Assembly (NCBI GenBank): GCA_017499595.2
Contig: CM039006.1
Span: 2,728,001-2,792,000 of the forward strand
Direction of reading: 5' to 3'
DNA from: Psilocybe cubensis
Lineage: Eukaryota
Length of the DNA: 64,000 nt
Numbering within the stretch: the stretch's first letter is position 1; each line of letters starts with the position of its first letter. The position numbers and the translations under genes were made by a program. Under the pieces are notes generated by a model. The model was not told the origin of the DNA, ran no database searches, and saw only the letters and a list, made by a program, of their open reading frames with translations. Below are positions 5,466 to 31,092 of this stretch, in pieces.

Positions 5466-7532
5466 ATATCCGACCGTCAGTCCCAACTCATTTCTTCCAC
5501 CTCGTTCTATTACATATTTAGTGGAAAATTACATCATTATTGATACTGGTCCTGGATTATGCTATAATGCTTGCAGATTTCGTACTCCATTGCAATCACG
5601 TAGCTACCCCGAGCTCTGCACGTCCTTGCTATCTTTGCCAATTTGACTGTATTATATAAAGACGTAGCGTAGACGACCTTGTGGTAGCTTGCGATATAAA
5701 TAGAATTGGCGCTTGCTTAGGTTGCTCTTGGGCGCTTGGTAAAGCTTGGTGCGAGCCGTGTGACTGGTGTCCACGTTGTACACTTTCTGGCACATCCTGT
5801 CATGTCCACCCGTATATCGCCGAGATATAACCAGGCGTAAAAGACAAAAGTTGTACTAGACTTGGCAACTGACAACACATAGCCACTTTTAGGGAGTGTG
5901 AATCTGTGCAGAACTCGTTCCCAGCTTCAGTCTATGCCAATCATGTTACAGACACTCCTAAATCTCCTTCGTGTTGTTAACAGGATGACTGGTTTCCCTA
6001 CCAGGCGACAAACCATCCTTCCGGTTCGTTTGATGTAAAATTCACGATACATCATCTGGTGAAATGTTAGATGATTCACGCGGGCACACCGATTCTACAC
6101 ACAACACGAATGAGTATTAGTCCATTGGGAGTTAGTTGACTGATGACTTGTACTACCATCCTAGATCCTTAAGTGACTTTCTTTCAGACTATGCTCGGAG
6201 TGATTGTGCTATTCTTTAATGCTCTCTCGTTTTGTATTGAAATTTGAAAACTCGTGTACATTCGCTCTAAAATCCAGATTTGTATAGTTACCCATTACCC
6301 ACAATAAATTGATAACCGTTTTTACGAAGACGATTGGTTTTCTGAGCAAGCGCTTAACTGTTCTTCGATGTTCCAGCCCGTGAGGTTCGACCCAATATGC
6401 ACAAACATATGACAACAAAAGTTGGCAGGTGAAATTCTATTTCACTCTCATTACACGATGGGCACCTAACTGTCATGTGGCTATCTAACATGTTAGCTAG
6501 GTTGTTGCCATAATATTGTATTATGTTAATTGTCATGTAATTGTCACGTTAACTGTCATGTTTTTTGAGTCACACTCTGCCTTGTCACTCATGACATGGG
6601 GTCCAGCAGATACATATCCGGTTGACTTGGGGGAAAAATGAAAGGAAATGTAGAGTGTATACATTAACACTACACCACCTGGCCAATATTAAACACTAGG
6701 GGTATTGGCTTAAGAAAATAGTAATTTGTCTGAATTTTTTTGATTGATCAAATTGCAATTAAATTTCAAGATTTATTGACAATAAAATTGATGTGGTGCA
6801 CATCATGGCGGTATTTGAATCCATCAATACCCATGCCGATTGGCCGATCAGTAATCATGCTCGCTAGAATCCCCCTATTCGTATCAATTTCTTCCAATAT
6901 GGCGCGTACTCGCGCATTAGAGAGACAGCATGCACCTAGATATCAGCAAAATAAGGACAAGAATCTCACTTCCTGGGAAAGAATGGCAATTTTCCTCATT
7001 AACGATGCAAAAACGGTCGACGAGCAAACAGTCGCAATCATGTTCTCACATCACGCAAACTAAGATCGGAAATCACGTCGATTACGTGCTGAGAGGCTTG
7101 CTCTAGATGGGTGTAATTGTTGACAGAATGCGCACCCTGCCAGGCATTGGGAAACACAGCTGAAAACGCGCGCAAAGAGGAGACACGCCGCGAAATAAAG
7201 ACGCGTTGCTGCGGTCGGCATGTTGGCCGCTTTCAAGCTCATTCAAACTCAGAAAGGCACACCAACAGTACACACCACATGAATTTTACGAGTAGCACTA
7301 CTATTGCCCCCAAGTCAACCGGTTATGTAACTGCCAGACTCCATTTTTGATTGCTAGCTTTGGGACTTGAAGACTATTCATGGTTCACAGAGACTTACTG
7401 GGTCATGAGTGACAAGGCAGAGTGTGACCCAAAAAACATGACAGTTAACATGGCCTTGCTGTAAAGCTAAGGCTCCCCACTATTGAAAAGATGAATGTTT
7501 AGACGTTGTTTGTCACAGCTATTTTTAACGTC

Positions 7533-7679
7533 TTTGCCAAACCTTACCCTGCCATTGGGACTTGCACTCGAATGTTGAGACATTGTTTGGTTCTAATGTG
7601 TTTGCCAAACCTTACCCTGCCATTTGGACTAGGACGAATGTTGAGACATTGTTTGGTTCTAACGACTGTACCAAACCTT
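7533..7679 (+). repeat. Subterminal tandem repeat, ~68-bp unit, two copies plus a partial
   Basis: TTTGCCAAACCTTACCCTGCCATT...CGAATGTTGAGACATTGTTTGGTTCTAA starts at 7533 and 7601; partial CCAAACCTT at 7671. Confidence 0.85.
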
Positions 7680-8078
7680 GTCGCACTGTGTACTCCTCTC
7701 CCTGAACGTTGTACACTCATGACCGACGCCATCTACCTGGTTGTCCATTTAAATTTTCACTTCTCTTTGACTTGTCTAACTCACTCCTTATCCTACAGGC
7801 TCAACTCTCCGCATATATTCCTAAGAAGTCGAAGTCCACTGTCATCACGTCTGTTTGACGAAGTCAAAGACCACCGTCATGTCTGCACCCCAATCCAACA
7901 ATGCAGTAACCAGCCCCCCTTCGATGTGGCTTACCATCAACTCTGACGATCTGACAATGGACCGTCCTACCAATGTGAGTCTTCATCATACCTATTTCTA
8001 TCTTCACTAACCATGTCGTTCAGCCTCGTACACAAAATTAACAAATCCTTCTTTTGTTACTAAAAAATGTATTCTAAT

Positions 8079-11000
8079 CTAATATAATCCGATTCTCTGT
8101 TGTTGATCGAATTCCCATCGTACTTTCGTCTGTTTATTCAACTCCTCCAGCCTCTTCATATCCGCTCGAAGATCTTCCGATGGATGGTGCTGAAAAAGTT
8201 TGTGGTCAAACTTTCTGAGCAGACGGATTGTATCTCTACCCCGACTCCTTGACAGGGCCACGTACGCCCCAAATGGTGATAAACTGCCGCTGGGAGGGGG
8301 TGCTAGGTCAATAATGACATACTCAATGGTTTGCCCCTGTGACTTGTAATCCGTGAACGCGTAGCCAGCCGTGATGGCATATTGTCGCCGCATAATGGTC
8401 GTCGCTTTCTTCTCGCCCTCCAGTTTGACTGATATTTTTGCTTCAGAGGGGGTCAAAGGTATCAGCCCCGGTTCAATGCCTTCAAAACGTAGATGAGTTG
8501 GTTTGTTGGGTTTGAAAAGCAACATGGCCGGAGGATATTTCAGTTTCGCCACACCATTTTCAATTACTGGATGTCTTCCTTCTCTCTCGTCTAATATTAT
8601 GTCGTGAATGATACCCCTGGTGCCGTTCGCGATATCAGCTTCTGTAGCAATGTTTATCTTGATCATGGCTTTCATGCCAACCGCAATTTCAATGACATCC
8701 GTCAGGTTTCCTGTGAGATCTTCTTTCATCGCTGCGATTTCGCATCGCTGAGCAATCGATGCCCTCTCTCCGGTGCTTTTCACTGTATCCTCCGCTTCAA
8801 CAATGTATCTGATGTTTCCACTGCGATGACAATGTTTCTTGATCGCTGCTTGATTCCACATCTCTCTGACTACATGCCGAGGAGTTACTAGGATAGCGTC
8901 ATCCCAGGGTGGTTGAGTAAAATCGGGTACAACACAGCGCTGGTCTTCCAAAACCAACTTTTCTATTTCATCGATATCGTCGTAGTCACACTCTCCGACT
9001 CTCAGGCGATTCAGAATCTCCATCCATTGTACGTCTTTCACCCGTATTTGTTTGTCGAGAATGACAACTGTCTCAAATTGTTTGAAGATTTCTCTGCCTA
9101 ACATTGCGCGCACCGAGTCCTTCTCGCTCTCCACATACAACGCTCCTTGAGGTTTACGCACCGGAGGAAATTGATGAAAGTCTCCGGTGAGAATTACATG
9201 CATTCCCCCAAATGGTAGATCGGCGTTGGCACCTCTCGCTTTGCCATGAACATGACCCGTCACGGCGGACGTTAGTTGAAGGGCTGTTTTGTCGGCCATT
9301 GAAGCCTCGTCCAGAATCAAGAATGATTTCCCCTCTATATTTCGCTTTCGCTTAGCGAGCATCTCAGCCGAGGGTTTCTCCAGCCATTCATCAGTTTGTG
9401 GGGTATTTTTTGAAAGACCGGCCCATGAATGTAGCGTTTGCCCCCCGATATCAGTGGCCGCAATGCCCGTAGTGGCGCACTTTGCTAAGATGTTGAGTTG
9501 GCCGTAAAAGTCAAATGTCTCCGTAATAGCTCCGATTAACATTGACTTCCCAACACCCCCTTGCCCAAGTATCAGCATCAAAAGCTGCTTGGCGTGCCCA
9601 TCTGTTGTCTACCATTGAGTTCCATCATGAACTTCATTAGCCTGAATGAGTACTTACGGGTTGTCAGATGTTCCACCAGCTTCCTTTCAACAATATCATG
9701 GGCACGACGTTGCTCCTCGTTAAGGTACGCTAGAAGGCGTCGTTCGATACCACGGACTGGACGCCCTGAATCGGTTTGCATATCAAAGTGTGCATAGCTC
9801 TCGTCCATTAGTCTTTCGACATGGGGTGGTAAGTGGTTTATAGACCCTAATACCCTCGGCTCTCTCTCATCGCTCGTCATGTTGTCGCACGAGGCATCCA
9901 TTGCGTTTGTCACTCTAACAGTTTCTTTCAACTGCTGGTCCCACGCTGCTATCCTGTCTATTTCCTCCTCTCCTCTTGCCACGCGACAACCTGCTCTCCA
10001 CACTGTGTCTGGGCATTCTTCCTCAAAAAATCCGACTCGTTCTCCTTCATAGAGTGCTGCCGCTGCAAAAAGCGTCTCCCTGGCGGGTATTTTGCCCATC
10101 CGCGCTATCTCTACATCCTCTTCCGTTAATTCGTCGAAAAACGGATCCGCTCGCATCTCCTCTTCTAGCATCTCTTTCTCCTCGTTTTCGAAGTCCAATT
10201 CGCACTCCACAGGTTGGTCTCGAGTCCCTTGATTCTTCTCCATTTCTCTTCGCGCGTGCGCTCCATCAAGACATTCATAGTAGTACTGAATGTTGTGGAT
10301 TACGGTGTGTACTCTCCTTTTGCCTTCGCCCAAAAGTTGTTGAAATCGTGCTTCAAAGGTGGCGCACTCTCCCTTCAGCGATTGCAGCTCCGTCCATGGC
10401 GAAAGTAATGCAACCATTGACGCAAAGTAGAACTCTTTTTCATGATCTTCCATACAGTCATTTCGTGGAAACCAACGGCCAACGAACCTTGGTAGCCTCT
10501 CGTGCCCCGGTCCACGGATAATACGACAACGGCTCGCCTTGCCTGCCCCTTCTTTGTATGGTACTCGTTGACTCATAGGACGACCTCGTGCCACCCCATC
10601 GCCCTGTTCCTCCATGTCTAGACCTCCTGTCGACTCGACGTTGATGCTCCCGTTTTCGACTCCTTCGTGGCCCGCATCTCCTTCGTGTTCAGGACGTGGT
10701 CCACCTTTCTTCCCAAGATCTCCCTCGTATGTGAACAGCATGAAATCTAAAAAACTCATATGCTCCAATTCCTCCCCCCTATAAACGTAGTCGCGCAACT
10801 GATCTTTGATCATGGCACGTCCGTCTACCATTTCCAATGTAACATCGTGGGCCTGCTCCTGATTTTGGTGGCAACGTCAACAATGCTACTTAAAATAACA
10901 CAAAAATTCTGCCTACCTGCGTGCTGCCACCAGACCCTTCCCGATCATCGCTGGTTGTACCGTCTGGTTCGACTGTCGTGGGTGGGGATTTCTCCTCGTG

Positions 11001-14000
11001 ACTCTGTTGTGGTGGAATAGTTCTGTCAAGGAACAGTCAGCTCGCAAAGTCAATGTGTTGGTGGTTCTATGTCATACCTTGGTTTGCAAAGTTCTGGATA
11101 CATCTTTTTCAACGTACGGGCGACCGGATCCCAGAAAATCGGTATGTAGTGATGTGATTCGTAAACATCCCCCCATCCCATGATGTAGCTAACTATTTCT
11201 GGGCCGCTAAACTCTCGATAACGAGTTAAGGAATTGGCACAACGTTGGATCAGTCGTTTGTTCACGAGCTGCATATCGGTAACACCCCGGTCCGCTGCTT
11301 TCGAGAAGGCAAAGGCATTGGCCAACAGAGCGGACAAGTTTGAGGTTCGCTGTTGTTTCTTCGTGGCATAATTGGTGATGTAGAACGTAATGGTTGCAGT
11401 ATCCATTCCGCTCAAAATCAATTTCAAGTCGTGATTCGCCCGTAATGCGTGCATAATCCAGGGATTGAAAGCGTTCAGGAGTTCGCACAGTCTCTTAGGA
11501 CCCCACCGGCCCACTTCATCCACCCATGCATGCACTGCCTTCTCGAAGGGTGCCCGCCGTTTGCACTGCATCCGTCCGTTGATTAATTTTAGACATGCGG
11601 CCGCGGTGCATTTATGATATTGCATGGCCCTCACTAACTTTTCCAGCTGCTCCAGCAACTCTTGATCAGTGGCATGGCGAGGATCCACCGGTCTAGAGTA
11701 CCCAACACCTGCGACTTTAGGAATAGCCAGCACTTGCTCTTTCGTCTTTCCACCAATATCCGCTTGAATCACCGTTTCGATATACCTCCGCATTTTCTCT
11801 CGAAACCTTTCTGATAATAGCGCTCGTTTCATCTCGTCTGCATTGGGCGCATCCTTCAGCCATATAAGTGTGTGCAAATGAAGAGTTCCTCGACCCTGAG
11901 CCTCTACCGTGCCGATATAGCATTGCACTTTCCCCAGCACGCCGTATTCACGTTCCAACCGTCCCTGTGGATACTTTTTAATGCCCAAAAGCTCTTCCAA
12001 CACCAATTTCATAATGAAGTGAAAATATTGTGCCGAGGCGTACGGATCCGATGCCATGTTCGTGGCTCGACGAGTGTGGTCTGGCCCTGCGGTATTGCAA
12101 AACGCATCGAGGTCAATCTCCTCTCCCGCAAACACCTGTGCAATTGGATCTTGGGTATCGGCCGGGTTGATGGTCATCCAAATGGATGGAGGGTTGAACA
12201 GCAGGTTGGTGCCCCAAACTTTCGATCGTACTGAGCTCCGAGATTCATCTGTTCCTTTAACCGCCTTTCTGACTGCCCTCAATTCTGTCCGTAACGCTCG
12301 AACCGCTGGGTTGGTAAACGTGATTCCCCGCTTTTCTTCCTGGCTCGCTTGAAGTAGGTCCCTTGGTTTCAATGTTGATATTAGCCTCATGTTGCGCATA
12401 AAGGTGGATTTCTTCATTTGAAGAACAGCCGATCTGCAGACTTCCCGCTTCTGCATGACACCAAAAACTTGGAAAGGATAGTGCGGGTCTTTGCGAAACC
12501 TGTGATCGTGATATTCCATGGTCCACCTAACGTGAGTCTCGTAGGGCACCTGAACAGGCCGATCTGTTTCTATTCCTCCGGCGCCATACGGGAACAGAGC
12601 GGGAAAGCTTCCCAAGAGATGGTTGGGGTTGCTTGGACCCCCGTGGTGAAGTCGCCCATTTTGCTGGTTCCTGCGAGGGTATTCGTTTACGAAGGTGTTT
12701 CCACGACGAACTGTGAAGTCTTCAGGAACTTGATGAGACGTGTCTGTGCCAGTACACATGTTGTTAAGGGCATGAGCCAGCAGTTCTGACGTGGTGATAT
12801 CTCCACCCTGGACATCGACAACGCCGTGGGATAGAAGGGGGATAACGGACGGTAGAACTTCCCCTGAAGTCATGGTCAGAATACGGTCAGTGCCAGGATT
12901 GCAAGACAAAGTAACGGGTTATTTACCTTCTTCAACATGGCTATTGTCGTGCTCGTCAATCTCCGTGAGTCCAGCTTCGTTCAACGCATCTTGAAATGCT
13001 TGAGAAGAAAGGTGTTCATGCAACTCGCAACTTCCCACGAAGAATAAACTTACCTTCTTCTTCCGCCGCGTCCTCTGGCACGTACCCGGCATGTTCCTTT
13101 TCAACTGCTTGCAAGTCAGACGAGTATTTGGTGGTGGCCAGTAGTTCCAAAGGTATACCATCTTCCGGCAACATTTGCAAGTTTTCATCGCTGATATCAA
13201 TGTTTTCATACAGTGGATTGTTCGCTTTCAACCAGACTAGGGCGGCATGCACACGTTTTCTGCGAACTTTGAACATTGCTGGCATGGTCGACTCCGGCAA
13301 TCCTTTGGGCCCAACAAAGGTCACTCCGATAGTGGCAGGTAAAATTTTCGACGGGCGGGGGAACACGTTTTTGCCCCCTTTTAACATGGAGGCTACTTGG
13401 TTTGGATCAAGCTTGTACGTTGAGACGTTTCCCCGTAGGCCGCTATGCATTTGTGACCGATCCCAGTGTTGTGCACCTTTCTGTTTGGGAAACAATTTGA
13501 TGATGTACGCCGCAGGGAAATACATGGCGATTAGCATCTTTTCCGGGAGAGTGAGATCGGCGAGTTCTCGTGGTACGTCACCTACCCACATGTTGTTGCC
13601 CAAGCTGAATTTCGGTCGTTTACATTTCTTCAAGGAACTGAGGCATTCGGAACACAGTATAGCGTTGTTGCCGTCCAGCAGAGAGCCAGTATGGAGAAGC
13701 ATCCCCTCAGTTAGTACATGAGCGGGATGAGGGGTATACGGGTTCAAAAGATGGCGATGTGGTATGTCACTCAGTTTGAGCACATTCATTTCTTCCTCTA
13801 ACATCTCCCTGGCACATGACGCGCAGACCCGATGGCGCAATGCTTCATTCGAAGACGCATCAATGAACTTCGCAAGTCGTTCTTTGCATAGGTCTATGGA
13901 CGGGGGCATCAGGAAATCGCCTTCAATAATCTCTTGGAGTCTCTCATCGGAGACTTCATAGAAATTTAGCCTCTCGGCGGCCGTGGGTTGTGGGTCTTCT

Positions 14001-14365
14001 CTGGCAACCTTGGGTGGCTGGCGCCTGATTCGTTTGCGCCGCATTCCACAAACATAATCTGCAGCTTTCCTTCGCGTACCGTAATTTGCGTAACGGCCTT
14101 GCCCTGCCATTATCACTGTCCTGGCAGCGCTAGTAATTGCTTCCACAACATTGGGTGGGAAGGTGGCGATCTTTTCAAGCATAAGACTGCGAGTCTTGAG
14201 CGAAGCGTGCGTGAGCCTCTCGGGAGAATGTTCAAGGATGATTTCTTTTAGTTTAGAAACAGTAATATCGGACAGTGCTTCCATGGGGTGCGGGTTGAAT
14301 AGACCACGTTTAATGATGTTCTGGTCGACAAATGCTGCTGGACAACTTGCGGATACAATTTGCAT
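8079..14365 (-). CDS. Helitron RepHel transposase (DUF6570-like Zn region + HUH/Y2 Rep + PIF1 helicase), multi-exon
   Basis: 13016-14365: CASC...CSEC, SLGNNMWVGDVP (DUF6570-like). 11050-12909: WMTINPAD, EAQGRGTLHLHTLIW (HUH), YITNYATK (Y2). 8079-9581: GQGGVGKS, LDEASM, GDFHQFPPV, YAFTDYKSQGQT, YVALSR. Whether this is one spliced gene or separate Rep and Hel genes cannot be decided from sequence alone. Confidence 0.93.
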
Positions 14366-14595
14366 TTTGCTTCAATGTGGGTCTTACATTTCTGTCACGC
14401 GTTATTGTCCTGTTTCGCTTGAAATAAATTTGACCTCTTTTCCTCATGTTAAATCAGGAGCACTGGGTATTGGTAACCAACCGGGCTGTAGAAGCTATGA
14501 AGAAGAATTTGAAACAGGCGTCGTTTGTGGGCCAATGCATGCATGTACGTGTTTGCAGTAAAGTCACTACCTGTGTAACTCATTGTCTTTATAGG

Positions 14596-15120
14596 ATGTT
14601 CCCCGTCGTTCCTGCGCGTTCTTGGGCGGTGCCACTACCAAAATTTATATTGTGAATGTCCCCGCCGCTGCAGGTAAAGAAGATATCAAGGATTATGAGG
14701 ATCTAGACGTCACCATGTGGATGCCTCACTGGCCATTTATGTGGGATCATGTTGCTGCGTTTGACGCACAGTTTTGTCAAACCTACGAACGTAGTTTGCC
14801 CGGAACCTCCATCACTTTTCAATATGTTTTATTCCACTATTCCCAGGTTGGCGTTCCATAGTCTTGCCCTTTCAAAATTTCTCATTATGTTTTGTAGTCA
14901 ACAATCCGTGGTATAGCGGATGCCGACAACAATTTTGTAAGAACGCTCCTACGTCAACGGGGCATTACTCGCTTGCTTCCTTGGTATGGGGAAATTCTCA
15001 TTGCCAAATGTACGCTGGAAGGCACTGTCGTGGATTTTACACGACGCGACCTCGCTTTGGTTCCGGAGTTAATTCAACAGTTCGTGTGTCTTTTTTGTCT
15101 ACCTAACTTTTGATTGATGT
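14596..15120 (+). CDS. Helitron cargo: small intron-containing coding segment of unknown function, possibly 5' exons of the downstream F-box-like gene
   Basis: Reading frames ...DLDVTMWMPHW...YVLFHYSQ and, after a GT-AG intron, ...NNFVRTLLRQRGITRLLPWYGEILIAKCTLEGTVVDFTRRDLALVPELIQQ. Confidence 0.45.
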
Positions 15121-15374
15121 AGCCTATGGTAGCCTCGTAGAACGTTTTGAGACTATTTGAATGAGTATCAAGCCCTGTCTGTACTTATTTCAGTAGACCA
15201 AAGGCGCAATTTCCTGATGCCACCCAATTTCTATATATAGTTTGCTATTGACACTTGTGTACTACGTGACCGTTAAAATTTTGTCAATTCTTCCTACCTA
15301 CTCGCAACCTCAACATACATGCAAGGTTTGTTGCAGTGGTTGGACTTTGATTGTCAATAACTTAACGCCCTTTA

Positions 15375-16338
15375 GATTTCTTTAAACTACTTCCCGACGA
15401 AATTCTGGGTCTCGTCATCAATGATTCCTCTTGGTCCGCGTGGATGGCTTTAAACTACACCAACATGCGCCTGAGGAGGCTGGTGCAAGAATCCGTCCGT
15501 CGTCGCATCAAACACTTTGTTGGACTTTTTTTCGCTGACGCCCTGGAAATTTTTTTCCACCTGCTGGGCAGTAACAACGCCTTGATCACGGGGCCGCTCG
15601 TCCGATGCATCATGTCTGTGGACAATCCCATATACACACAGGTGTACCCTATCCAGCTCGACATCATTCTACCAAGGCGTTACGCTTTCGGTTCTTTTGA
15701 TTCCTTTGTCCGTTCCCAAGGATATCATGGAGAAAACACTGGAAACGTGGAAATGTCACTGCGTAAGGGCTTGAAAAGATTTCATACATATCTCTCGGTA
15801 TGTAATGCCTTCTATGCTTAGCAATAATATGCTGAGATTTCTGAATAAGTGGAATGGCGTAATGAAAGTCTGTTTGCTTTTAGCAACTGATGATAAAACG
15901 TTACCTGGCCTCCTCTCTGCGCCGTCGTCGTCGCAAATGTTTGCGTTGTCACACACGCGGCTATACTGCTTCTACCCGCAGTTGTTCGCCAAAAGACAAT
16001 TTTTGTATATTCGGAATGATGTGGACGATATTATCATGCCACCGTACGAGGAGTTCAACTTCGGCCTTTGGAACAGAGATGGCTTGGTTTTGTCGGAACC
16101 TTGCGGCGAAACATGCCCCGTTCTATGGAGGAGGATCACCGCTGGAGGTGGTGTGGCGATTATGCGTTGGGGAGGATTTCATGGGGACAAGGACTATGGC
16201 AAGCACGTCTCACCACCTGATTATTTTGTACAATCTGGTCAACATATAAGGTGGCGTTCCGCTCGGAAAAACCGTTGCGACAATGTCCATTGCCAACACT
16301 TCCGTCGTTTTATTAATTTAGAGTACACATTGTATTAA
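15375..16338 (+). CDS. Helitron cargo paralogue 1: F-box-like + degenerate nucleotidyltransferase-fold-like protein
   Basis: FFKLLPDEILGLVIND...NMRLRRLV (F-box-like); ALITGPLV...IQLDIIL; APSSSQMFALSHTRLYCFYP; Cys-rich C-terminus. Confidence 0.6.
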
Positions 16339-16582
16339 GGGTGCACTTGGCCTTCCTATGTGACGTCATCCTGTTCCCCCTATATGTTGATGTGTGTGAT
16401 CACGTCCAAGGTTGTTTTCCATCCACCTAGAGCAGACATTAGCATTAAATGCCCTACTCATCGCGGGGTACGTCACGCTGAGTTTCGTGAGTTTGTGATG
16501 GTGCCTCTGACAATCGCAAGCAGAAAAATCGAAGTTTGACCACTTATTATCCAAATACAATCTGGGGCCTGTTGACAATGTC

Positions 16583-17245
16583 TTGAGCTTACTGCGACAT
16601 TCACGAGGTGTGGTGTTCGGATCGATGGCATTGGGCGTTATACAAGATCTATTATTCGAGCCGCATGATCTCAACCTCTTGGTGGGGCGCCAGGGCCGTC
16701 GGTCTATCGAACGTTACATTCAGAATCATGGTTATAGGCTGGTTCAAGAACAAACGGGTAATATGGGGTCAACGGTGTCGTGCTTGACAACCTATTCCCA
16801 CAAAGTGACACACAGGCAGATTACCCTGACGGTCTCTCGGGCACATTCCACTCTAGCTCCTCTGATTCAAGCACCTTCTACGCTTCAAATGAACTTCGTT
16901 TCTTGGTATGGAGCAGTCTGCCTGTACCCGGAGCAGACTTTACAAAACAAAGGCTTAGTACACTTCAGCGAAAATGAAGATGGGTTACTCCTGGACCGGT
17001 ATGAGCAACGGGGTTATCGTATCACTTATCAAGGCAATCATTTGGGCCACTTCTGCACGGCTCAGCCACGAAGTATTCAAAGCCCTGCTGTTCATGTCGT
17101 CCCTTTTTTACCACTTGATGAAACACGGACGGCTATAAAGAGCACAGACATAATGTGGAGGCTTAATGGTAAATGTTGTGAAGATTTTGCCAGATGTGCT
17201 GTCTTCGTAGACGTGAGGAATTACGAAGTTGGTAAGCCTTTGTGA
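16583..17245 (+). CDS. Helitron cargo paralogue 2 (nucleotidyltransferase-fold-like); start probably upstream
   Basis: VVFGSMAL...PHDLNLLV; APSTLQMNFVSWYGAVCLYP; DIMWRLNGKCC. Confidence 0.65.
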   Translation: MSLLRHSRGVVFGSMALGVIQDLLFEPHDLNLLVGRQGRRSIERYIQNHGYRLVQEQTGNMGSTVSCLTTYSHKVTHRQITLTVSRAHSTLAPLIQAPSTLQMNFVSWYGAVCLYPEQTLQNKGLVHFSENEDGLLLDRYEQRGYRITYQGNHLGHFCTAQPRSIQSPAVHVVPFLPLDETRTAIKSTDIMWRLNGKCCEDFARCAVFVDVRNYEVGKPL

Positions 17246-17526
17246 GTTAATACCATATTTTTTGATATGTTAACGTCCATAATTTGTAGTCGAAGTGCAC
17301 ACGCCTGCTGACGAGAGTTTGTAATGGCAGTCCCATCCTTCATTTCCTGGCATGCAATCATTACTAGGGGAAAGTATAATCCTAGCAGGCGACACCATGT
17401 TGCCGTCATGTATACGCATTTATAACTATGACCTAATCTGCTAAATTTATCTTGCTACTGTTCCAACCCGTTTAATGAAACCCATTGGCGTCGTCCTTAA
17501 TGTGAAACTGTCTTCTTCATTTTTGT

Positions 17527-18430
17527 TTGGTTTCCCTGCATATACGGAAAACCCCTTCTCTTTGTTCAGTCTTGCCATGTCTACTTTTGTTCAACGTGCG
17601 TACTCCCTTTACCTTTTCTTTAAATGACCTGACTTGCCTTGTAGATAAAGAAACATTCACATCCCTCATTCGCCCATTCCTCCCTCCTAACGAGTTTTTG
17701 GCAATAATGCGGTCCTGCGATGTCGTTGTTGTTGGTTCTGTGGCCCTCGCCATGGTTCGACCCATCGCTTTTACGCCCTCTAACCTAGACCTACAAGTGC
17801 CTTGCGATGGGCGACGTGACCTCCACAAGTTTCTCTTAAAACACCGCTACCCGCCTAAACTCATTTTCCAACGACAACACTGGTTCCACTGTCTCACAGA
17901 TCTGCTCTTACTCACACCCGTCCCATGCCTCATACATCTCCATCATTGTTTCTAGGAACAAATCGTCTTTGACCCCCCTGTTTCAATCCCCTTCGACGTT
18001 GCAGATGAACTTCGTTGCCTGGTACGGGGCGGTTTGTCTGTATCCTGAACTTACGCTACAATGCAAAGGCCTTGTACAATTTGATGAAGACGAGGATGGT
18101 TTATTTCTCCACAAATATCTCGAACGGGGCTACACTTTTCTTCCACAACAAAATGCTGTTGGTCACTTCTGTGCTTCACAACCGCGTAGCCTGCGCTCAC
18201 CGGTCACCATGATTGTTGGCTTCTACAACCCCGACCAGACTCGACTGGCCATGCGTAACCTGGATGTCATATGGCGGCTGCGGGGAAAGTGTTGCGACAG
18301 TCAGCTCAGGTCAGGTTTATTCATCGACGCCTATTCTCATGACGTTGGTGCGTTGACTTACATTGTGTATCTTCCTTTCGCTCATTTCTTCCAAGTGGAA
18401 ATTCATTCATCCTCTGATATCGGTCCCTAA
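17527..18430 (+). pseudogene. Helitron cargo paralogue 3, frameshifted
   Basis: VVVGSVAL...PSNLDLQV; SPSTLQMNFVAWYGAVCLYP; DVIWRLRGKCC. An apparent +1 C at 17850-17852 shifts the frame relative to paralogue 2. Confidence 0.6.
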
Positions 18431-18556
18431 TTTACTACATGTCACCCCATTGCTTTTGTATTACTAATGCTAAAGTTTTGTTCAAACCTCGAACCTGACC
18501 ATCTCCGCCTTCATATGGCACCATGTATCTTTAATGGGTGACATCATCTTGACGTC

Positions 18557-19616
18557 ATGTATAGAGATAGAGATAAGATAGTCTATGAGAGTGATCTAAT
18601 CAGTTTTAATTTATCTTGGAGCTTTTACATCCACCTTAACTCATTACTGTTTCAACCACGAGTCAACGATCTGGCCATGTATCTCAATTACCTTTGCTCT
18701 AGTCAACTGCGCCGATGCAGAGTGTACCACGGTAACTACGGTGAGCTAAACATACTACTTTGCATTCCCTGTCATGGACCACTAACGGTGGTATTGAACA
18801 TACTGGCCGCAGAAAGTATCGAGGAGCAACGGTTCCATTTGGAAAAGTGCCACGACTATCTGGCCAGCGATAGCTTTCTCCGCACGTCAACCTGGTATAT
18901 GTTAAACAACGGATATTCTCGCCTACATAGCCTGCCTGCTTCGCATCAAAAGCGATGTGTGGTGGTAGGTGTGATCAGCGACGATGGTGCATGGTTGGGC
19001 CCTTTAGGTAATTTGGACAAAAACTCTGGAAATAACTTGAGCGACGCCAAACATATCTTTAACCTGGTCTGCCCTCGAGGAACAAAAGGCTACGACGTCG
19101 ATTTTTCCAAAGCAATGGGGAATCTACGCTTCCTTCTAGAAGCATTGCCTGCACACTCAGTAACAGATCCGATGCTCTCTTCCGCTCACGGCGAACCGTG
19201 CATAACATTTACGGCGCCGTTGTTCAAGTTATCCGTACGTTGCAATGTGAATCTCTGACGTGTGGTATACACTGCTCAAACCTTCCATGTACCTTAGACA
19301 CTTGGAGGCGAAGGTCCGAAATCCTGTCTACGCATGTGGTTGTTGTATACTGAATGATCACTTAGTCCACAGGGATCGTGATATTGATGTTGACTATCCA
19401 ATACCCGTGGAATATCAACGTGACCTCCGCCTGTTGAGAGAGGATCATATGATGGGGTATATGACAGTTTGCAAAGGGGACAGAAATGATTCATTACCGG
19501 TGGAAAACTTTTCAAAGGAGTTGATTGGACACTTGGTTCGTGTCGAATTTATTTTATTTCACGACTCCAATTACCAGTTGCATACACTGGTGTTAGAAAT
19601 TAGAATAGTCGACTAA
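18557..19616 (+). CDS. Helitron cargo family B, copy 1 (unknown; beta-rich, possibly OB-fold)
   Basis: VVVGVISDDGAWLGPLGN...AKHIF...DFSKAMGNL...FTAPLF...LIGHLVRVEFILFH, colinear with the gene at 20481. Confidence 0.5.
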
Positions 19617-20480
19617 ATTCACAGGCCAACGCTCGGTTCATGTACTGTCATTGAATTTACGCAGTTTATTTTACCCTTTCTGGCGGTGAGGGAACTTCTG
19701 CTGACGTGAAAATCGGACATTGGTCCGATGGCTGTGTTTGTGTGTGTTGATCGCGGATGGTCTGCCGTTGTATGACAGCCCCAAAGGGGTTTGGTTCTCT
19801 TACTTCTCTAACCTCAACTGCTTCACCTCAGTTTGTCCAATTGGCACAAACACCTGTCTCATAATCGCAGTGGATGGCGTTGCAAGTAAGCACATAGTAT
19901 GTGTGGCTCATTGTATCGGTTTCACTTGTACCCGCCAGGGACCCTGCCATGAAGGGAGCCCGACAGCGATCACAACCGACACAATTTTTTTTTCGGGGGG
20001 GGGAACATTTTTCTATGAATTTCATGCGGTACCAAAGTGAGTTTTTGGGCCATGTTTGAAGAGGGGTTTTACTTAACCATGTGGACACGCGACTAGGTTC
20101 CGACCTGGTCAACTTGTCCCGTCGTTTTTGTTGACCAAAGGAGCGGGCCCACGTTCTCAAAATCGGATTGGAAGTCCCCAGAATGCAGCCATCTTGCCTC
20201 AAATTTGTTGCGACCACCCTCCCTTCTTTCATTGGCCAAACCTTTAACCTTGGCGTAAAATTTGGCGGGTGCGTATCTGTTTGACTACGTCACCAAGGAT
20301 CACTCGTAGACATAAAAGCGGCAGGTTTGGCGTTAAGACATAATTAGCTTGGTTTTCAACGACCACCATCCCTCAGTTTCCGCTTCACAAGTGCTGCTGT
20401 CTGTCGCCATGAACACTTCTTCGTATGTATCTGACTTGTTCCTGTTATAAATCTTTTACTGACTTAGCCCTAGCGCCACC

Positions 20481-22340
20481 ATGCCTTTCAACGAGGCCTA
20501 TGTTCGTCAACAACTTCTGACCTTGCCGCAATTCACTGCATCTCCTGGATTTAAGGAATACGTGCAGTGGCGTGGTGCCGGGCAGGAGGTGTTAGCCCTG
20601 CCAGGCAGGCCCACAGACGCCATAGAACCTGTCCAGTTGATTGTGGTTGGTCAAGTCACCACACGCGCGTACCTCGAGCCCCAAGGGAACTTCAATCCAA
20701 TGTGGCAAGATCCTTTGCGAAATGCCATTGGGGCGAAGCTGGTGTTCGATGTTGGGAAGCCTCTCCAGGTTCTCACATTGGGCGGAGACTATGATACGAG
20801 TTTTGATAACCTGTCCGAGTGTCAAACGTCGATTGCGAAGACGAACAAGCACAACCATTTCCTGAACAAGGAAACGCGCACTATGCGGTTCAGTTTTCCG
20901 CTTTGGGAACCAAGGGTGTGTAATGCCATTTGGATCTATTCCTTTTCCCCTTATCTGACCATCGCCGTTTTCTCTCAGAGTGTTGAAAATACGAGTAAGC
21001 CTCTTTTCTTCTTGGCGAGATTACACAGTTCTAATGCTATATGTACAGCTCCCGCGCGCGACAGTGCCACATACGGATATACAGTCAACCCCGCTTGCAC
21101 CCCTTGGTTCAACAGTGCAAAAAATTCTCACCATATCCGACTGATGCCTGTGTACGACGTGGAGGAAACACTAATTACGCGCCCAGACTTGTTCGCCTTG
21201 TTGCTGATAGGTTCCGTGGTGGAAGTGACTTTCACTCTCCGCCACTACCACATGGCCGTCACATCCACTCGCACAGATGCATCCGATACTTTCTCGGCGA
21301 GAGTTGAAAGTGTGAGTGTCTTATGTCCACCCCCACCTGTTCTGCAGAGCCCTATTCGCATGATCTCGCCCCGTAAACCGCCCCGTCAGGCTCAGACTCC
21401 TACTCGCCATGACTTTAGTCAGGTCAAGCAACCGTCTTTCACCGCCAACCCTATGACGGTTCATCTGGCTTTGCCAATGAGTAGTGCTGTAGGACCACAA
21501 GCAGCATACCAAACCAGTATGCCAAACTTCACCTATATATCTTCTTTCATAGCACTAATGTTTCTCTAGGTACCTCATCCGCTACATCTTTCACAGTAGA
21601 TACGGCCCTCAGTGCCACTGGGGCACCAGGACACGCCTCTTTTCCGGCGTCCCATGATATCGCTGGTGGTCCAACGACACCGGTAATGGGGGTGTCCCCG
21701 CCTCCGACGCTTATGCGACCCGCAGCAGCAGCGTCTGCTTCTGCGCAGGCGCCGCCACTTATTGCTTCGACGTCGATCCCTTCCGCACCTGTGCCTGTGG
21801 CTCCCCCTGTGGCACCCGTGTCTGTCCCGCCGACGCCTGCGCCTGTGTCTGTCCCACCGCCGCCTGCTCCCGTGTCTGTCCCACCGATGCCTACGCCTGT
21901 GTCTGTTCCACCGGCCCCGGAACCTGTGTATATCCCTCCTCCGGCTGGGTCTGTCCCGCCTGCCTCTACGCCTGTGTCCGTCCCTCCTGCGCCTGCGCCA
22001 GTGCGTGACACTCCGGCACCTGCGCCTGGGACTGTCCTTCCTCCGCCCGCGCAAGCGTCTGTCGCACCTAACGTCACGGTCACAAGCGGAGGTGTGGCCT
22101 CGGGGCTCGTAGGATCTTCGTCCGATGGTGGTTCGCAACAGAGTGACCCTGCGACATCTTCAGCTCCTGTGGCACCGGTACCTGTGGTGTCTCAACCGGA
22201 AACCAGACGGTCAAGCTTACGTCGTTCAAGTAAGTACCTCGCTGTCTTAACGTGGAATACTGTTTAATTGGTTTGCCCAGGAGAAGTTACGGACCAAGGA
22301 GATGGGGAAGGAAGTCCTACCAAGAAAACCAAGTAAAATA
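20481..22340 (+). CDS. Helitron cargo family B, copy 2, with long Pro-rich C-terminal tail
   Basis: IVVGQVTTRAYLEPQGN...AKLVF...FSFPLW...MPVYD...LIGSVVEVTFTLRHY...FSARVESVSVL, then PVSVPP repeats; 3' end approximate. Confidence 0.6.
21787..22030 (+). repeat. Coding minisatellite, ~27-30 bp units encoding PVSVPPxPA
   Basis: Repeated CC(T/C)GTGTCTGTCCC units in the Pro-rich ORF 21686-22267. Confidence 0.8.
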
Positions 22341-22641
22341 TTATCGGTATTGGGAAAGTAATTTGCCATGCCCTCCCAAATCATTGCACTTGCGTAGTAT
22401 AGCTATTCCGTGTTTTAATTGTATTTGTTCCAAATATTTACTCCTGATTAAAGTTGACTCAATGGACTTCGATATAAAAGCAATGAGTGAGCCTGGAAAG
22501 GTGACCACTGCCCCCGAGCACAAGGAATTGTTTCATCTGTTGAAAATGGATTTTTTTGCGCATGTATTCTCTTTCTGCTGTTTTTGCTTTGGTGGCTGAC
22601 TGGTTTGCAGGAGTTTTTCCACCGAGTACGATGACTCTCTC

Positions 22642-23770
22642 ATGGACCACTTGGATCAAAGGTCCCTGTACCGGCTGTCATGGACTTGCTTAGAACTACA
22701 TGAAAGGGTCAACAGATATATGGGCAGGGCGCTGTCTGTTGAAAAATTATTGTGTCGTTTCTTTATGCCCTGTGAATATGACGATTTTCGTCGTCTTCAA
22801 TACGACACAGGCCTTGTCATATCGGGTTCGGCGGCCCTCCATTTTTTGTCACGGGATAAACATTGGGTTCCGGACGACCTGGATACATATGTTGAACACC
22901 GCTATGCATGGCAAGTAGTCCACTGGCTCCAAACCCGTGGATTCGAATATCGCATAATGGATGTATTGCCTGAGTTGACCTCTCCAGAGGTGGCTCTGGA
23001 TAATCAATATGTCCATTTTCCTCATGGCGGTTACGATACCCTAGGGTCCATTTTGTTATTCGTGCGTGGTTCGTCAAAAGTGCAGTTGATTACGGCACTA
23101 GGTAGTGTAATGGAATGCATTGTGCCTTTCCACAGCAGTGAGTATTGACCCGTGGCTTCTACCGACTGATCTCATTGATATAATACACTTACATGCAGCC
23201 GCGGTCATGAACGTCATTACATATGAAAAGGCGTACTGTCTCTATCCACTGGCCACTTTGGCTAGGAGACTCTCGTTGTTGAAGTCAAACATGATGGCTC
23301 GTCGAACCCAGAATGCAGTCATAAAATATCACCACAGGGGTTATGGTATTGCTTTTTCAATTCCGGATCCAGCAACGTGGATGATGCTCAGTCCAACAAT
23401 GCAAGACAAATTGATCGAGAAAATTGACGACCTTATCATTAGTTATCCACGGGAAGAAGGAGGCGAGGAAACAATTCCGGTGCGATATATAACGAGAGGG
23501 ACTCGTATGTTCCCAATGGGGGGCCGTCGGGTTGGCGATGCATTATGTTGGACTTACACACTCGAAAAAACAAATTTCCCCACAGGCCCATCTGTGTTTG
23601 AAGCGAATACGTGGTATTTCTGGTATGACAGGTACAGGCGTGTTATGTTGGAGTTTACAACACTGCGAGGGGAAGGCCTCAAATTTTGCTACACAACCCA
23701 ATCGGAGGTTCTTTGGAGAATCATCAACGAAAGGTGCGAGGGTACTGTGTGGAGAAGGAACGGACCGTAA
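22642..23770 (+). CDS. Helitron cargo paralogue 4: F-box-like + nucleotidyltransferase-fold-like protein with intact GS...DxD motif
   Basis: MDHLDQRSLYRLSWTCLELHERV (F-box-like C-terminal half); LVISGSAALHFL...VPDDLDTYV; KVQLI; FHS|(intron)AVMNVITYEKAYCLYP. Extra short exons are likely at both ends. Confidence 0.7.
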
Positions 23771-24006
23771 GCATAGTGCTCTGTTTTAATTGTAATGAAG
23801 TTAGCTGACGCTTAGATACCAGTAAGCGAGACGCCAATGTGCTTAAGGTTGTTAAAAAGTTCAGCGTTCGCCCACAAAGATTATGGGCACATTAGGTTGC
23901 AATATTAATTATATCAGTGTAAAGTACATGTTCAATACAAGCTGGTGAACACGTTATATTTCAAAAATACCGTAATCCTCAAGTACATCTGGATGTTTGC
24001 AAAGTT

Positions 24007-24810
24007 TTAGATCGTTATTGCTCGACGGAAAGTCTTAGAGAACCCACGAATTTGGTCACTTTGTAAGTCAATCACAGCGCCATTCGGGGACCCAGACTGG
24101 CCCGCGAGACGCCAAACAATATCATACTGTTGCATAGGGGACGCGCCAACATATGAGTTGTCCAAAGGAATGAATAATATGGTGTCCAATGACATTCCTC
24201 GGGGGTGCTCCAGGAAGGAGCGAACAGTATTATCGCATGAGGGTTGCAGAATGAAATTGTGACGGTGAAGGAGTTCCCCAATGACTTCATTGTCCGATCT
24301 CCTATAAAGAATGACGCCTTGGTTTCTCGGCAAATACTCCGGATACAAGCATACCGCGCCCTGGGGTGTTATGAAGTTCATGCCAAACGTCGTGCTGAAA
24401 TTGAACACAGGCAAAAATGGGACATGATTTCTGGATATTGTAACCGTAATCTGGCGTCCGGATTCAAAGTTACAGTAGTAGCTGTGTTCGGTCCAAACTG
24501 ATTGCTCGTTGTCTGAGTGGAAGGTTTGCAAATATTCATATCCGTGTCGCACACAAAAGACGTGCACACGAGAACGACCAGTCTGACTAACAGACAGAGA
24601 GAGGTTATGAGGAGTAATATCTTCACCCGTGAAAAATGCGAGCGCGGATGCCCCTGTAATAACAGAGCTGGACCACTTCAAGAAATATAGGAAGTCGTCC
24701 ACACTACCTACGCCGAAGGGTCGTATGATGTCGTGAACTTTTTGCCTTGCTGTGAATAAAAACGTGCTTGAGAAAACCGCGTCATTGAAAAGTACATATG
24801 GAAAATGCAT
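24007..24810 (-). CDS. Helitron cargo paralogue 5 (degenerate nucleotidyltransferase-fold-like), inverted
   Basis: FLKWSSSVITGASALAFF...PHNLSLSV; STTFGMNFITPQGAVCLYP; DIVWRLAG. Confidence 0.65.
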   Translation of the reverse strand: MHFPYVLFNDAVFSSTFLFTARQKVHDIIRPFGVGSVDDFLYFLKWSSSVITGASALAFFTGEDITPHNLSLSVSQTGRSRVHVFCVRHGYEYLQTFHSDNEQSVWTEHSYYCNFESGRQITVTISRNHVPFLPVFNFSTTFGMNFITPQGAVCLYPEYLPRNQGVILYRRSDNEVIGELLHRHNFILQPSCDNTVRSFLEHPRGMSLDTILFIPLDNSYVGASPMQQYDIVWRLAGQSGSPNGAVIDLQSDQIRGFSKTFRRAITI

Positions 24811-25123
24811 GTACCTGTGCGAGCGGACTGTGTCGCCATCATAGAAGAGAGGATGTGGGGTGCTCGAGTAGTTTCACTGCAGAGACATATCAATTATATA
24901 AGTGGTAATCTGGTCAAGACTGACGTAATCAGATACCTATAATCTAATCAGATGTTCAATCTATTCCAATTGGTTTTTGTGTCTCGGACTGGCGAGGCGT
25001 CATGACGGTGATGTTGAGGAAGGTCCTTGTCTCCGAGTCTTAACGTTGACTACCTATGGCTGACTTCCCATCGTCATATGAAGGTAAGTTTGGGTTTTAT
25101 TGTAATAGGCGTCTTATAACACT

Positions 25124-25891
25124 TTGCCAGCTATTTCAAGACTAGCAGACCTGCTTAGTCCATACGACGTCGGCACCGTACCTGGTTTCTTGCGCTTTTT
25201 AAAGTGGTCTAACAGTGTTTTGATTGATAATGGGGCTCTAATGTTTTTCACGCATCTGGACCTGCCAAACAACGACATCAATATTAGCGTTTCTGAGGCT
25301 AACGAGTACCGAGTCGATGCGTTCTGCTACAACCACGGTTATGTTTTGGTGGATAGAACGGATGACAATAGACCAAGTTCTTACATCCAGCGCGTCTCTG
25401 TGTTCCGCCATCCAACGTCAACGGTGTCTATAATCATCACAGTCTCGGCATCATCATTAAATTTCCTTCCAATCTTCTCAGCAGCATCAACTCTCCACAT
25501 GAACTTCATTAGCCATGAGGGAGCTGTCTGCCTGTATCCAGACCTACTCAACAACAAATCGGCAGTTATTCAATTTGCGCAACGTGATGATGAGCCTCTC
25601 ATCTCGTCGTACCGATCTTACGGATTCAACTTGCGCCATCAGGGCTCTTCACGGGATCACTATTGCATGAAGTCACCAAAATCGCTGACTGGTAACAACG
25701 TACTCTTTATCCCTTTCTCAGCGGACGGCGAGTCGGCCGCGCCATGCCACAACGCTTTCGGAGTGACCGACGTGATTTGGAGGCTTGGTGGACAATGTTG
25801 TGATGACCATGCACGGATTGCCACAGTAATTGATGTGCCATCGAAGAACATATGTAAGTTTTCTATTGTCACTATAAGGTCCATCTCCTAA
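25124..25891 (+). CDS. Helitron cargo paralogue 6 (degenerate nucleotidyltransferase-fold-like)
   Basis: FLKWSNSVLIDNGALMFF...NNDINISV; ASTLHMNFISHEGAVCLYP; DVIWRLGGQCC. Confidence 0.65.
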   Translation: MPAISRLADLLSPYDVGTVPGFLRFLKWSNSVLIDNGALMFFTHLDLPNNDINISVSEANEYRVDAFCYNHGYVLVDRTDDNRPSSYIQRVSVFRHPTSTVSIIITVSASSLNFLPIFSAASTLHMNFISHEGAVCLYPDLLNNKSAVIQFAQRDDEPLISSYRSYGFNLRHQGSSRDHYCMKSPKSLTGNNVLFIPFSADGESAAPCHNAFGVTDVIWRLGGQCCDDHARIATVIDVPSKNICKFSIVTIRSIS

Positions 25892-26824
25892 CCAGTCGAC
25901 ACAGGTACATATAATGGAAAGGGGCTTTGCATAATGTAGAGACATAATTAGTAGTAGAAATAAATTGCATATTGGCTGGGTTCCGGTGTGCGCCGGACCG
26001 TTGTTCGACGTCCCAACACCAGCAAGGCCCGAATTGGCGAAGCCAATCTTTTATGACAATTACATGACAATTAACATAGTACAATATTATGGCAACAACC
26101 TAGCTAACATGTTAGATAGCCACATGACAGTTAGGTGCCCATCGTGTTATTAGTAGGCTGCGTGTGGGCGGGAACAACACGTTCCCAAGTTTCGCGGGCA
26201 ATACAGAGTCGACGGTAGACCGTACAACAAACGTACATCACGCAACACAGCCTCGTCTGGACGATCTCCCCTGTTTACATCTATTTCCCACAAGCTCTCC
26301 CACGACGATCGAAGTTGTTCATGGCGCATAAAAAGTATATGGATTTTGTGCTTCAAGAAAGGTCAGTTCTACATGAGTAAAAAGTTGTATGTATATATGT
26401 ATATATAGGGGTTACGCCTATGATAGGAAGATGATGTTACATCGCATTTCCTCGCGTCCTATCTTGTATTCCCTCGTGTCACATCAAACACATCAACAAA
26501 AATGGATCGAAGGATCGATGGTAACATAGACTGAGAGGAGAACACGGTGGAACTTGTACGAGAAAGCCCCCGGGCGAAGAGGCGAGGTACAAAACAATGA
26601 GTGGGAGAGGATAGTGTGTGTGAGAGCTGCCGGGGGCGGACAGCAGGAAACATGAATCAAGAGGTGTCGCACAAATCAAATAACAAAAAGATGAGAGTGA
26701 TCGCAAGAAAGGAATGGAGGGGAGGGTACAAAGCTAGATCGATTATGACAACAAGACGGAGAGTTGTGATGTAAGGTTGCAAGGAGCGTGGTGTGGTTTC
26801 GGTGTGGTCCAGTGAAATGTTGAA

Positions 26825-30527: not shown

Positions 30528-31092
30528 AGCCGTAGTAGAGATTCTAGATGAGATTCTGGTCGATTCCAATTATGTTGTCTCGAATTTTTTCTACGACGAG
30601 TAACTTCCGTTAGGTTTGCTTCCGCCACAGAAAAATGGGAAGCTCACAGAAGTATTTGTTGCGCAGGCATTATAATTGACAGCAATCTTAGCGCCGACCA
30701 TTTTAGTATGATAGTAGTCTTATCATTTTTCAGGGTTGAAACCATCAAACCTATGTTTTCTTGTAAAAAAACGGCTTACAATGCTAGTTCTGAATGTATT
30801 GCTAAGAATAAGAATGCTGCGGTGAACAGATCAGATCACTTCCCATTGGTTGCGCAATGAAATTTTTTCAGACGAGTACCTGCGCAAGTACGCTGGTAGA
30901 GACTGAAATAGAAATAATGGAAGCATAGCAAGCGCCCGTTCTCGGAGATCTTCATTTGCCGGTTCTATTATGGGCACCAAATGTAAGAAGTGCAGAAATT
31001 ATGAGGCACATAAATGCACGAAAGGAATGCTACCTTGTCTTCAGGCAGCTTGCTCAATCAACCTTAGCAGTCGCTAACTATCCGGCACTATC

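Follow-up and report, generated by a model that had tools for sequence, protein, structure and literature searches.

Among described transposons, Helitron2/FoHeli (PMC5148889) and Pleurotus HELPO (PMC4289320) come closest to the element considered here, since, as far as the available parts of these papers go (a limit that applies to all literature cited in this text), they share with it an asymmetric terminal inverted repeat, a putative hairpin end and a RepHel transposase that is inverted relative to the ends. The cap genes of Pleurotus HELPO are likewise expressed cargo with no assigned function (PMC4289320), and ubiquitin-system cargo, including deubiquitinases, is known on Helitrons and sets a precedent for cargo that manipulates the host (PMC9741609); nucleotidyltransferase (NTase) cargo is not mentioned in the available parts of the Helitron2/FoHeli and HELPO accounts (PMC5148889; PMC4289320). 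Class II NTases, i.e., the CCA-, CC- and A-adding enzymes of bacteria and eukaryotes together with the poly(A) polymerase of bacteria, are built from head, neck, body and tail (PMC11646218), and an NTase borne by a mobile element has been described in Gad2 (Gabija anti-defence 2, PF26128), a predicted NTase that inhibits Gabija and is toxic in bacteria (bioRxiv 10.1101/2023.05.01.538930). We have analysed 64,000 nucleotides of Psilocybe cubensis (GCA_017499595.2, contig CM039006.1, positions 2,728,001 to 2,792,000, forward strand), called the window in the following, in which a Helitron2-type element of 18,603 bp (7451..26053) carries six homologous NTase-family genes, p1 to p6, within positions 15319-25939, all of them plus-strand genes except p5, which is on the minus strand. 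One of them has retained the predicted catalytic residues of the family and five have lost them, and the family combines two known kinds, Helitron cargo and a class II-like NTase.

The retained set is found in p4 (22612..23770, plus strand; intron 23138-23198, start codon not fixed), in which a predicted F-box is joined to an intact subfamily-B NTase with SGS, DLD, FHST, VMN and KY..RG, ISGS being located at 22819-30 and DLD at 22876-84. It alone of the six keeps SGS, DxD and FHST, and it has all near-fixed residues of the family, whereas the other five each lack one or both aspartates together with the histidine of FHST, the losses differing between copies. Thus p1 (15319..16338, plus strand; introns 15326-15375 and 15798-15849) is a dead NTase with TGP, QxD (QLD, 15654-62) and APSS between a divergent F-box-like N-terminus and a four-cysteine C-terminus, and the remaining four are degenerate members of the short subfamily A: p2 (16511..17245, plus strand) with FGS, DxN (DLN, 16667-75) and APST, p3 (17638..18430, plus strand) with VGS, NxD (NLD, 17782-90), SPST and a one-base frameshift at 17850 in the window copy, p5 (24007..24873, minus strand) with TGA, NxS (NLS, 24598-606, minus strand) and FSTT, and p6 (25056..25939, plus strand; introns 25084-25130 and 25854-25904, 261 aa when spliced) with IDN, DxN (DIN, 25274-82) and AAST. 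A sequence-only reading of the window had listed the triplets QLD, DLN, NLD, DLD, NLS and DIN and confined the combination of ISGS and DLD to paralogue 4, and both statements hold at the verified positions and in the motif comparison with homologues. The motifs that it gave for all six apply to most copies, p1 reading SSSQMF in place of ST..MN and p6 reading IDNG, and D.hWRL.G.CC, given for most, is complete in three of six (p2, p3, p6) and partial in p5. Two features go beyond that reading, namely the frameshift of p3 and the loss, in all five degenerate copies, of the FHST histidine that 107 of 117 homologues possess. The Pol-beta motifs hG[GS] and Dh[DE] occur in p4 only and not in p1, p2, p3, p5 or p6, and the distance from GS to DxD, rightly described as slightly long, is 15 in p4 and 14 in 96 of 106 pattern-matching homologues. 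The description of DLD as a metal-binding triad has to be given up, as DLD supplies two carboxylates; the likely third position, inferred from strand order, is Q in p4 and Q, N, D or H in 66, 27, 16 and 4 of the 117 homologues.

That the six genes are related, as had been claimed, follows from two profiles. While p2, p3, p5 and p6 are mutually 27-48% identical and p1 and p4 are much farther away, a profile of these four only has recovered p1/p4 exons among the 1,323 open reading frames (ORFs) of the window with E 1e-4, 3e-4 and 0.036 (best unrelated ORF 0.15), and a profile of 117 homologues, taken from the 150 matches listed as those of 200-450 aa from outside this genome, has found all six paralogues at E 7e-15 to 5e-68. 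Near-fixed residues in the 117 homologues are G (117), S (113), D (111), D (116) and H (107), as well as T and the KY..RG motif; GS, DxD and H occur together in 99 of 117 and in 203 of 230 members of a larger set, both sets consisting of top-scoring matches and being biased toward conserved members. With the family profile, 3,901 clusters at 50% identity have been obtained (HMMER), the named matches examined are all from genera that we take to be Agaricomycetes, and neighbouring locus tags suggest tandem clusters of family genes in several fungi. Word-based homologue searches with p2 and a p4 exon gave no match, whereas the full HMMER search did find homologues; Pfam has returned no family for any paralogue ORF (sole match E 0.19, on the second p4 exon), PHROGs no match for 118 family members, and sequence searches of the PDB chance matches only, and no relatives have been found in viral contigs or, by tblastn, in 50,697 phage records. 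In a body of full-text literature from which most subscription papers are missing, we have found no account of this family in fungi, of its fold as an NTase or of its association with Helitrons, and the term 'PF26128' is absent there.

For the fold, AlphaFold models have been made of p2 (pLDDT 89.7, pTM 0.88) and of the intact homologue P0069 (90.5 and 0.90). In structural comparison by VIA, p2 matches class II enzymes with Z 9.2, 8.9 and 8.9 and a root-mean-square deviation of 3.5-4.7 over 154-162 residues, the intact homologue reaches Z 9.2, and all 11 VIA rows of p2 at Z of at least 5 are NTases; the top Foldseek rows are CCA-adding enzymes, TENT5 and terminal uridylyltransferases at modest E (best 9e-4). 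Class II enzymes (PDB 3wfo, 3aql, 3h37, 4wby) and TENT5/FAM46 superimpose with head and start of the neck (Z 7-9, ~160 residues; Z 8-9.2 for the four PDB entries), the matched region being restricted to head and early neck and the alignments stopping near residue 200-220 of targets of 370-425 residues, and the short family proteins of ~250 aa lack the full set of neck, body and tail domains of class II enzymes. The models show the family to consist of predicted class II-like NTase heads of the CCA-adding/poly(A) polymerase type, within the Pol-beta superfamily and without body or tail, which bears out the Pol-beta fold proposed earlier and refines it. Class II NTases carry a motif of the RRD type. 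Like them, p4 has G[GS] and DxD; unlike them, the family has FHST-x2-MN where that motif is expected, a third carboxylate that is likely replaced, a predicted F-box fusion, a C-terminal Cys/His module and a transposon as its carrier. The F-box assignment is based on residues 1-50 of P0069, which match Skp1-bound F-boxes with Z 4.2-4.8, and on the N-terminus of p4, which scores 24.1 bits against the family N-terminal profile (none of 300 shuffles as high). The Pfam F-box models match neither p4 nor p1, and the score of the p1 N-terminus against the family profile is reached by 97 of 300 shuffles; among eight relatives of p1 in the dead lineage, three match an F-box model and one of them (L057) lies above the Pfam cut-off, so that p1 may be called F-box-like through its orthologues only.

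The trees, computed without the motif columns and with long branches that leave the root and the placement of p1 unsure, divide the family into a dead lineage that includes p1 (98/97), a subfamily A of short proteins and a subfamily B of long F-box proteins. Within subfamily A, one clade unites p2, p3, p5 and p6 (99/96) amid mostly intact relatives; within subfamily B, p4 is joined by two further copies of this genome (100/99). A single tandem burst from p4 is rejected, as p4 together with p2, p3, p5 and p6 has an approximately unbiased (AU) test p-value of 1e-7, and the test neither establishes nor rejects a single clade of all dead lineages (p-AU 0.54, 0.40). By tree topology the six genes are three old lineages, with p4 not the parent of p2, p3, p5 and p6. 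The proposal of an effector whose decoys are duplicates of itself therefore falls short of three old Helitron-borne lineages whose dead members do not stem from p4. Elsewhere in the genome, a single intact subfamily-B gene on contig C6 groups with the protein of a congener (100/100; locus of 3.5 kb read) and looks host-resident, subfamily-B genes flank Rep also on contigs C3 and C5, and an intact subfamily-A gene has not been found in this genome. A sister element on C3 (10 kb read) has an open p1-type gene and a truncated, broken p4-type gene.

Further copies have been noted at several places. At C10:83104-85198 (L121) and about 25 similar places, a subfamily-B gene is split by an insertion of ~1.56 kb and has been amplified in the split state, a few copies of this high-copy element being unsplit (C3:3669438, C6:719965). 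The region C3:3683198-3693526 holds a second Helitron family with a single RepHel frame of 2,781 aa, a divergently placed subfamily-B gene with NxD and neighbouring cargo that includes, by eye, a JmjC-like frame. At C8:2429929-2432400 (L017, L029), a subfamily-B gene and a subfamily-A gene stand in tandem in a decayed state, with no Rep match nearby among those listed, and two copies of another intact F-box member (C12:1775865 and C2:549518, L120) are found at a distance of ~3 kb from sequence that matches the left end of the element at 72-85%.

If the cargo were a captured host gene that has been duplicated and is decaying neutrally, the dead copies would be expected to erode, and the frameshift of p3 as well as the broken family copies elsewhere in the genome agree with such decay. 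The frameshift, however, is due to an extra base at 17850 that is absent from the second copy of the element on contig C4 and from sequencing runs X1 and X3, in all of which p3 is open, and thus represents a copy-specific mutation or an assembly error. Frames of the 27-48% identical copies are open despite saturation, synonymous sites being saturated in p2/p3, p5/p6 and p1/sister, and the orthologues of p1 have a nonsynonymous-to-synonymous rate ratio (dN/dS) of 0.08-0.18 in the seven of ten pairs that could be estimated (three saturated), equal to that of their intact neighbours (0.12-0.21). Contigs of p6 in two runs of one other study, both taken as RNA by guess, have both GT..AG introns removed, all other letters unchanged and an open frame of 261 aa, which indicates transcription and splicing of the most degenerate copy. 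The RNA support concerns p6: for 15300-25290 no RNA record was listed, and p1-p5 and RepHel lie outside the coverage of runs X4 and X5. Together with the three lineages, none of which is copied from the host gene, these data largely refute neutral decay, to which we assign a very small probability. The comparisons show that the five dead copies have lost the predicted catalytic residues but have been kept as proteins, in line with one possibly active enzyme, p4, accompanied by pseudo-enzymes, as the sequence-only reading had put it.

The linkage to Helitrons is seen in other DNA as well. Scanning metagenomes with 15 proteins of subfamily A has yielded 76 loci, selected by the pattern HSTxVMN, among which RepHel is present in 19 (17 of them distinct) and in 13 of the 22 loci of at least 7 kb, compared with a rough expectation of 0.7% from the Rep density of this genome. 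Elements whose Rep is 57-60% identical to that of the window have RepHel followed by a dead gene of the p1 type, an intact enzyme of subfamily A and y1, in this order (L064/L066, L067 and L074, and also the short contigs L062, L065 and L083), the dead p1-type gene and the intact enzyme being adjacent in 5 of the 19 RepHel loci (fetched DNA). In the p1-type genes the first aspartate has become S, T, N or Q, the histidine is lost and four cysteines are invariant. Two further loci, L045 and L050, have three tandem, mostly intact subfamily-A genes downstream of a RepHel on the same strand, with no p1-type partner seen; this layout is the one described for the Pleurotus cap genes (PMC4289320).

The conserved pair of a dead and an intact gene, together with the F-box antidotes of nematodes, gives rise to the main rival of the reading that we favour, a toxin-antidote system of the addiction or spore-killer kind. 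The short intact NTase would poison the cell, e.g., by adding tails to tRNAs, its dead F-box neighbour and paralogue would bind it like-with-like and send it to the SCF ubiquitin ligase, and nuclei or spores that lose the element would die. In keeping with it, the order RepHel, dead gene, intact enzyme is kept in related Helitrons, the dead lineage is one clade (98/97) under purifying selection, its member L057 exceeds the Pfam F-box cut-off, the Gad2 of phage SPbetaL7 is toxic in bacteria (bioRxiv 10.1101/2023.05.01.538930), and in Caenorhabditis tropicalis, where F-box antidotes exist, an F-box gene is linked to a harmful enzyme (PMC12680543). The Psilocybe paralogue is only potentially harmful, and the nematode toxin is a tRNA synthetase derivative with an antidote that is not its paralogue, unlike the pair of dead and intact NTases (PMC12680543). 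In the fetched DNA the p1-type partner shows up in only those 5 of 19 RepHel loci and was not seen in the partial contigs L045/L050, the subfamily-A copies of the window are all dead in a genome in which no intact one was found, the F-box of p1 itself has no Pfam match and fails the N-terminal profile of the family, the host retains an intact family gene, and the HELPO2 helitrons of Pleurotus are under- rather than over-transmitted (PMC5397611). A complex prediction made without alignments for the exon-split p1-type protein and the intact neighbour of L067 has given a score of 0.00, which counts neither way. On balance, we regard a toxin-antidote system as unlikely.

The tight linkage to RepHel over several Helitron lineages, with recurring neighbours of the y1/ssb2 type, would also be understandable if the enzyme were an accessory of transposition that processes 3' ends of single-stranded DNA (ssDNA) intermediates of the Helitron or of element RNA, the dead copies serving as nucleic-acid-binding helpers beside x1 and y1, which are putatively similar to ssDNA-binding proteins. 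Copy number (1 to 6) and subfamily, however, vary freely between elements, the sister element has no intact copy, and an F-box fusion and a host-resident branch would be unexpected for a replication factor, which makes an accessory role quite improbable.

A further approach to the function is provided by relatives outside fungi. The best predicted-structure matches, with E down to 5e-10, are NTase or F-box-NTase proteins of giant viruses (Klosneuvirus, Orpheovirus, Cedratvirus, Catovirus, Pithovirus), several of which are named F-box proteins; they are 10-20% identical to the family and themselves uncharacterised. In the Atlas, giant-virus clusters near p4 (0.91) and p3 (0.88) carry PF26128 on 29-34% of their members, and PF26128 has been found on 3 of 120 fungal homologues among those listed. 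Gad2, like the family an NTase borne by a mobile element, has IIAGG..DVDIYF, LQMI, FDFTVCM and KY collinear with the fungal ISGS..DLD, IQ/NxI, FHSTxxMN and KY..RG, and the Gad2 of phage SPbetaL7 scores 13.9 bits against a subfamily-A profile (best of 1,000 shuffles 7.1). Unlike Gad2, the fungal family has His where FDF has Asp, includes dead paralogues and F-box fusions, and belongs to a eukaryotic host that is not known to possess Gabija. The alignment is a weak hint of a distant kinship to Gad2, not of membership.

Based on these observations, one may postulate, with somewhat less than even confidence, that the cluster is a Helitron enzyme-plus-pseudoenzyme conflict module serving counter-defence. 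The family would be conflict gear of the Helitron and work in the manner of Gad2, the anti-defence NTase of phages. Its intact enzyme would add nucleotides to some target in the host, for which the 3' end of an RNA is the most likely candidate because the head is of the CCA-adding/poly(A) polymerase type. The dead copies, retaining the fold and the C-terminal Cys/His module, would act as non-catalytic binders that shield products of the element or jam family members of the host or of rivals, the host genome having an intact subfamily-B gene; the F-boxes would connect the module to SCF-mediated degradation, and the net outcome would be protection of the element against silencing or restriction by the host. 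We infer this from the fold, the mobile context, the maintenance of the dead copies, the giant-virus and Gad2 kin, the host-type copy and the precedent of ubiquitin-system cargo.

Several points weigh against a conflict module. Even p4 seems to lack the third catalytic carboxylate, and with Q on the strand that normally bears it, activity even of p4 is a prediction. Z values of ~9 are only modestly above the 7-8 usual for unclear matches, yet all top rows are NTases. Against the whole-family profile Gad2 scores 5.6 bits, within the range of the shuffles (up to 7.2), and HHalign gives a probability of 6.5%. We know of no Gabija system in fungi, which makes Gad2 an analogy of kind only. The metagenome loci are partial, pattern-selected contigs that come largely from few related samples. 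The ~25 amplified subfamily-B copies of this genome are interrupted between GS and DxD, and these split copies and the broken p4-type gene of the C3 sister imply that elements spread or persist without the enzyme. The conserved host copy, finally, could equally have a housekeeping role. A joint reading, which we consider doubtful, sees here the first transposon-borne NTase toxin-antidote or anti-immunity system of fungi, in which a Gad2-like enzyme would tail host RNA and SCF-recruiting dead paralogues would neutralise or steer it, opposed by the host F-box-NTase as a mushroom defence gene hitherto unrecognised as such.

Regarding the transposon itself, its limits have been set by comparing the window with uninterrupted copies of a miniature inverted-repeat transposable element (MITE), which represent the empty site, and are ambiguous by at most 3 bases. 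The Helitron is inserted at AT in the right terminal inverted repeat (TIR) of this host MITE, which lies outside it with its left part at 6447..7450 (TIR ~150 bp) and the rest of its right TIR at 26054..26153; the insertion target, ~1.1 kb long, occurs in many copies, the eight best of which, elsewhere in the genome, are 87-90% matches. An assignment of the 100-bp inverted repeats that start at 6447 and 26054 to the TIRs of a Polinton- or KDZ-like element was considered and rejected, as these repeats belong to the MITE. The joint 7449-26053 is present in runs X1 and X3. A second copy of the element on C4 (C4:329001-348400) is 99.93% identical and likewise inserted at AT, which indicates recent movement; in both copies a 2-3-base overlap at this site can also be read as a short target duplication. 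The two copies differ by 12 transitions and one base; that all 12 substitutions are transitions may possibly be caused by methylation-driven mutation. The 10-bp arms of the asymmetric terminal inverted repeat, terminal at 7452..7461 and subterminal at 26020..26029 (both plus strand), are kept in the window and C4 copies and are followed toward the right end by a hairpin (26033..26047, plus strand) with a 6-bp stem, a GAA loop and then a short T tract with which the element ends. The hairpin forms but is not significant by itself, with z -0.3 and 72 of 200 shuffles folding equally well. Ends with an asymmetric terminal inverted repeat, a short hairpin and a T tract are described for Helitron2 (PMC5148889). 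Contig breaks are seen at 24815-24819 in runs X1 and X3, where loose ends with other flanks, at 7451 and 26054, hint at other insertion sites or at shorter elements sharing these ends.

The RepHel transposase (8079..14371, minus strand) extends over several ORFs with presumed introns and includes DUF6570, Helitron_like_N and PIF1 (Pfam E 7e-43, 2e-33 and 1e-20), i.e., both the Helitron2 Rep and the PIF1 helicase. Near the element end, 7503-8050 contains repeats of 66-68 bp and a short plus-strand frame with the peptide PPSMWLTIN, which resembles PPSIWMTIN of a Rep ORF. Other cargo comprises the small gene z1 (14595..15113, plus strand; 37% to its counterpart in the C3 sister element, no Pfam match), x1 (18542..19616, plus strand), which is related to the N-terminal part of y1 (tblastn to x1 and y1 of the sister), and y1 (20481..22336, plus strand), which has a Pro-rich tail and is kept in the sister and in metagenome Helitrons. 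Both x1 and y1 recur on Helitrons of other fungi, and neither Pfam nor PHROGs provides a name for them; the tail of y1 consists of 27-bp Pro-rich repeats (21785-22048), and y1, as well as x1, possibly resembles ssDNA-binding proteins with an oligonucleotide-binding (OB) fold, as judged by eye. The C3 sister element has an extra cargo gene (L033:5117-6591) without Pfam match, whose motif GIGRYSANDLL presumably recalls Fpg/Nei glycosylases. Database proteins identical to the cargo are annotated as hypothetical in Psilocybe cubensis, and z1, p1, p2 and p3 are merged there in one gene model. Outside the element, three more small inverted-repeat elements (37091-37774, 40539-41220 and 61266-61642) are probably MITEs, and the host context is ordinary, with 57-bp tandem repeats in a host ORF (30004-30352), a DUF5648 gene (31078-31737) and a short-chain dehydrogenase (56533-57159).

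Cargo of fungal Helitrons has hitherto been regarded as captured genes of unknown function, and one large cargo family can now be given a fold and predicted catalytic residues. The analysis shows a conserved pairing of enzyme and pseudoenzyme, ties the family to proteins of giant viruses and to a phage anti-defence protein, and brings to light a conserved F-box-NTase gene of mushrooms for which no role has been described. With short single-exon enzymes and dead partners supplied by nature, the question is open to direct tests in yeast. Were the conflict reading true, it would show how fungal transposons resist control by the host, or would reveal a new class of selfish drivers in basidiomycetes.

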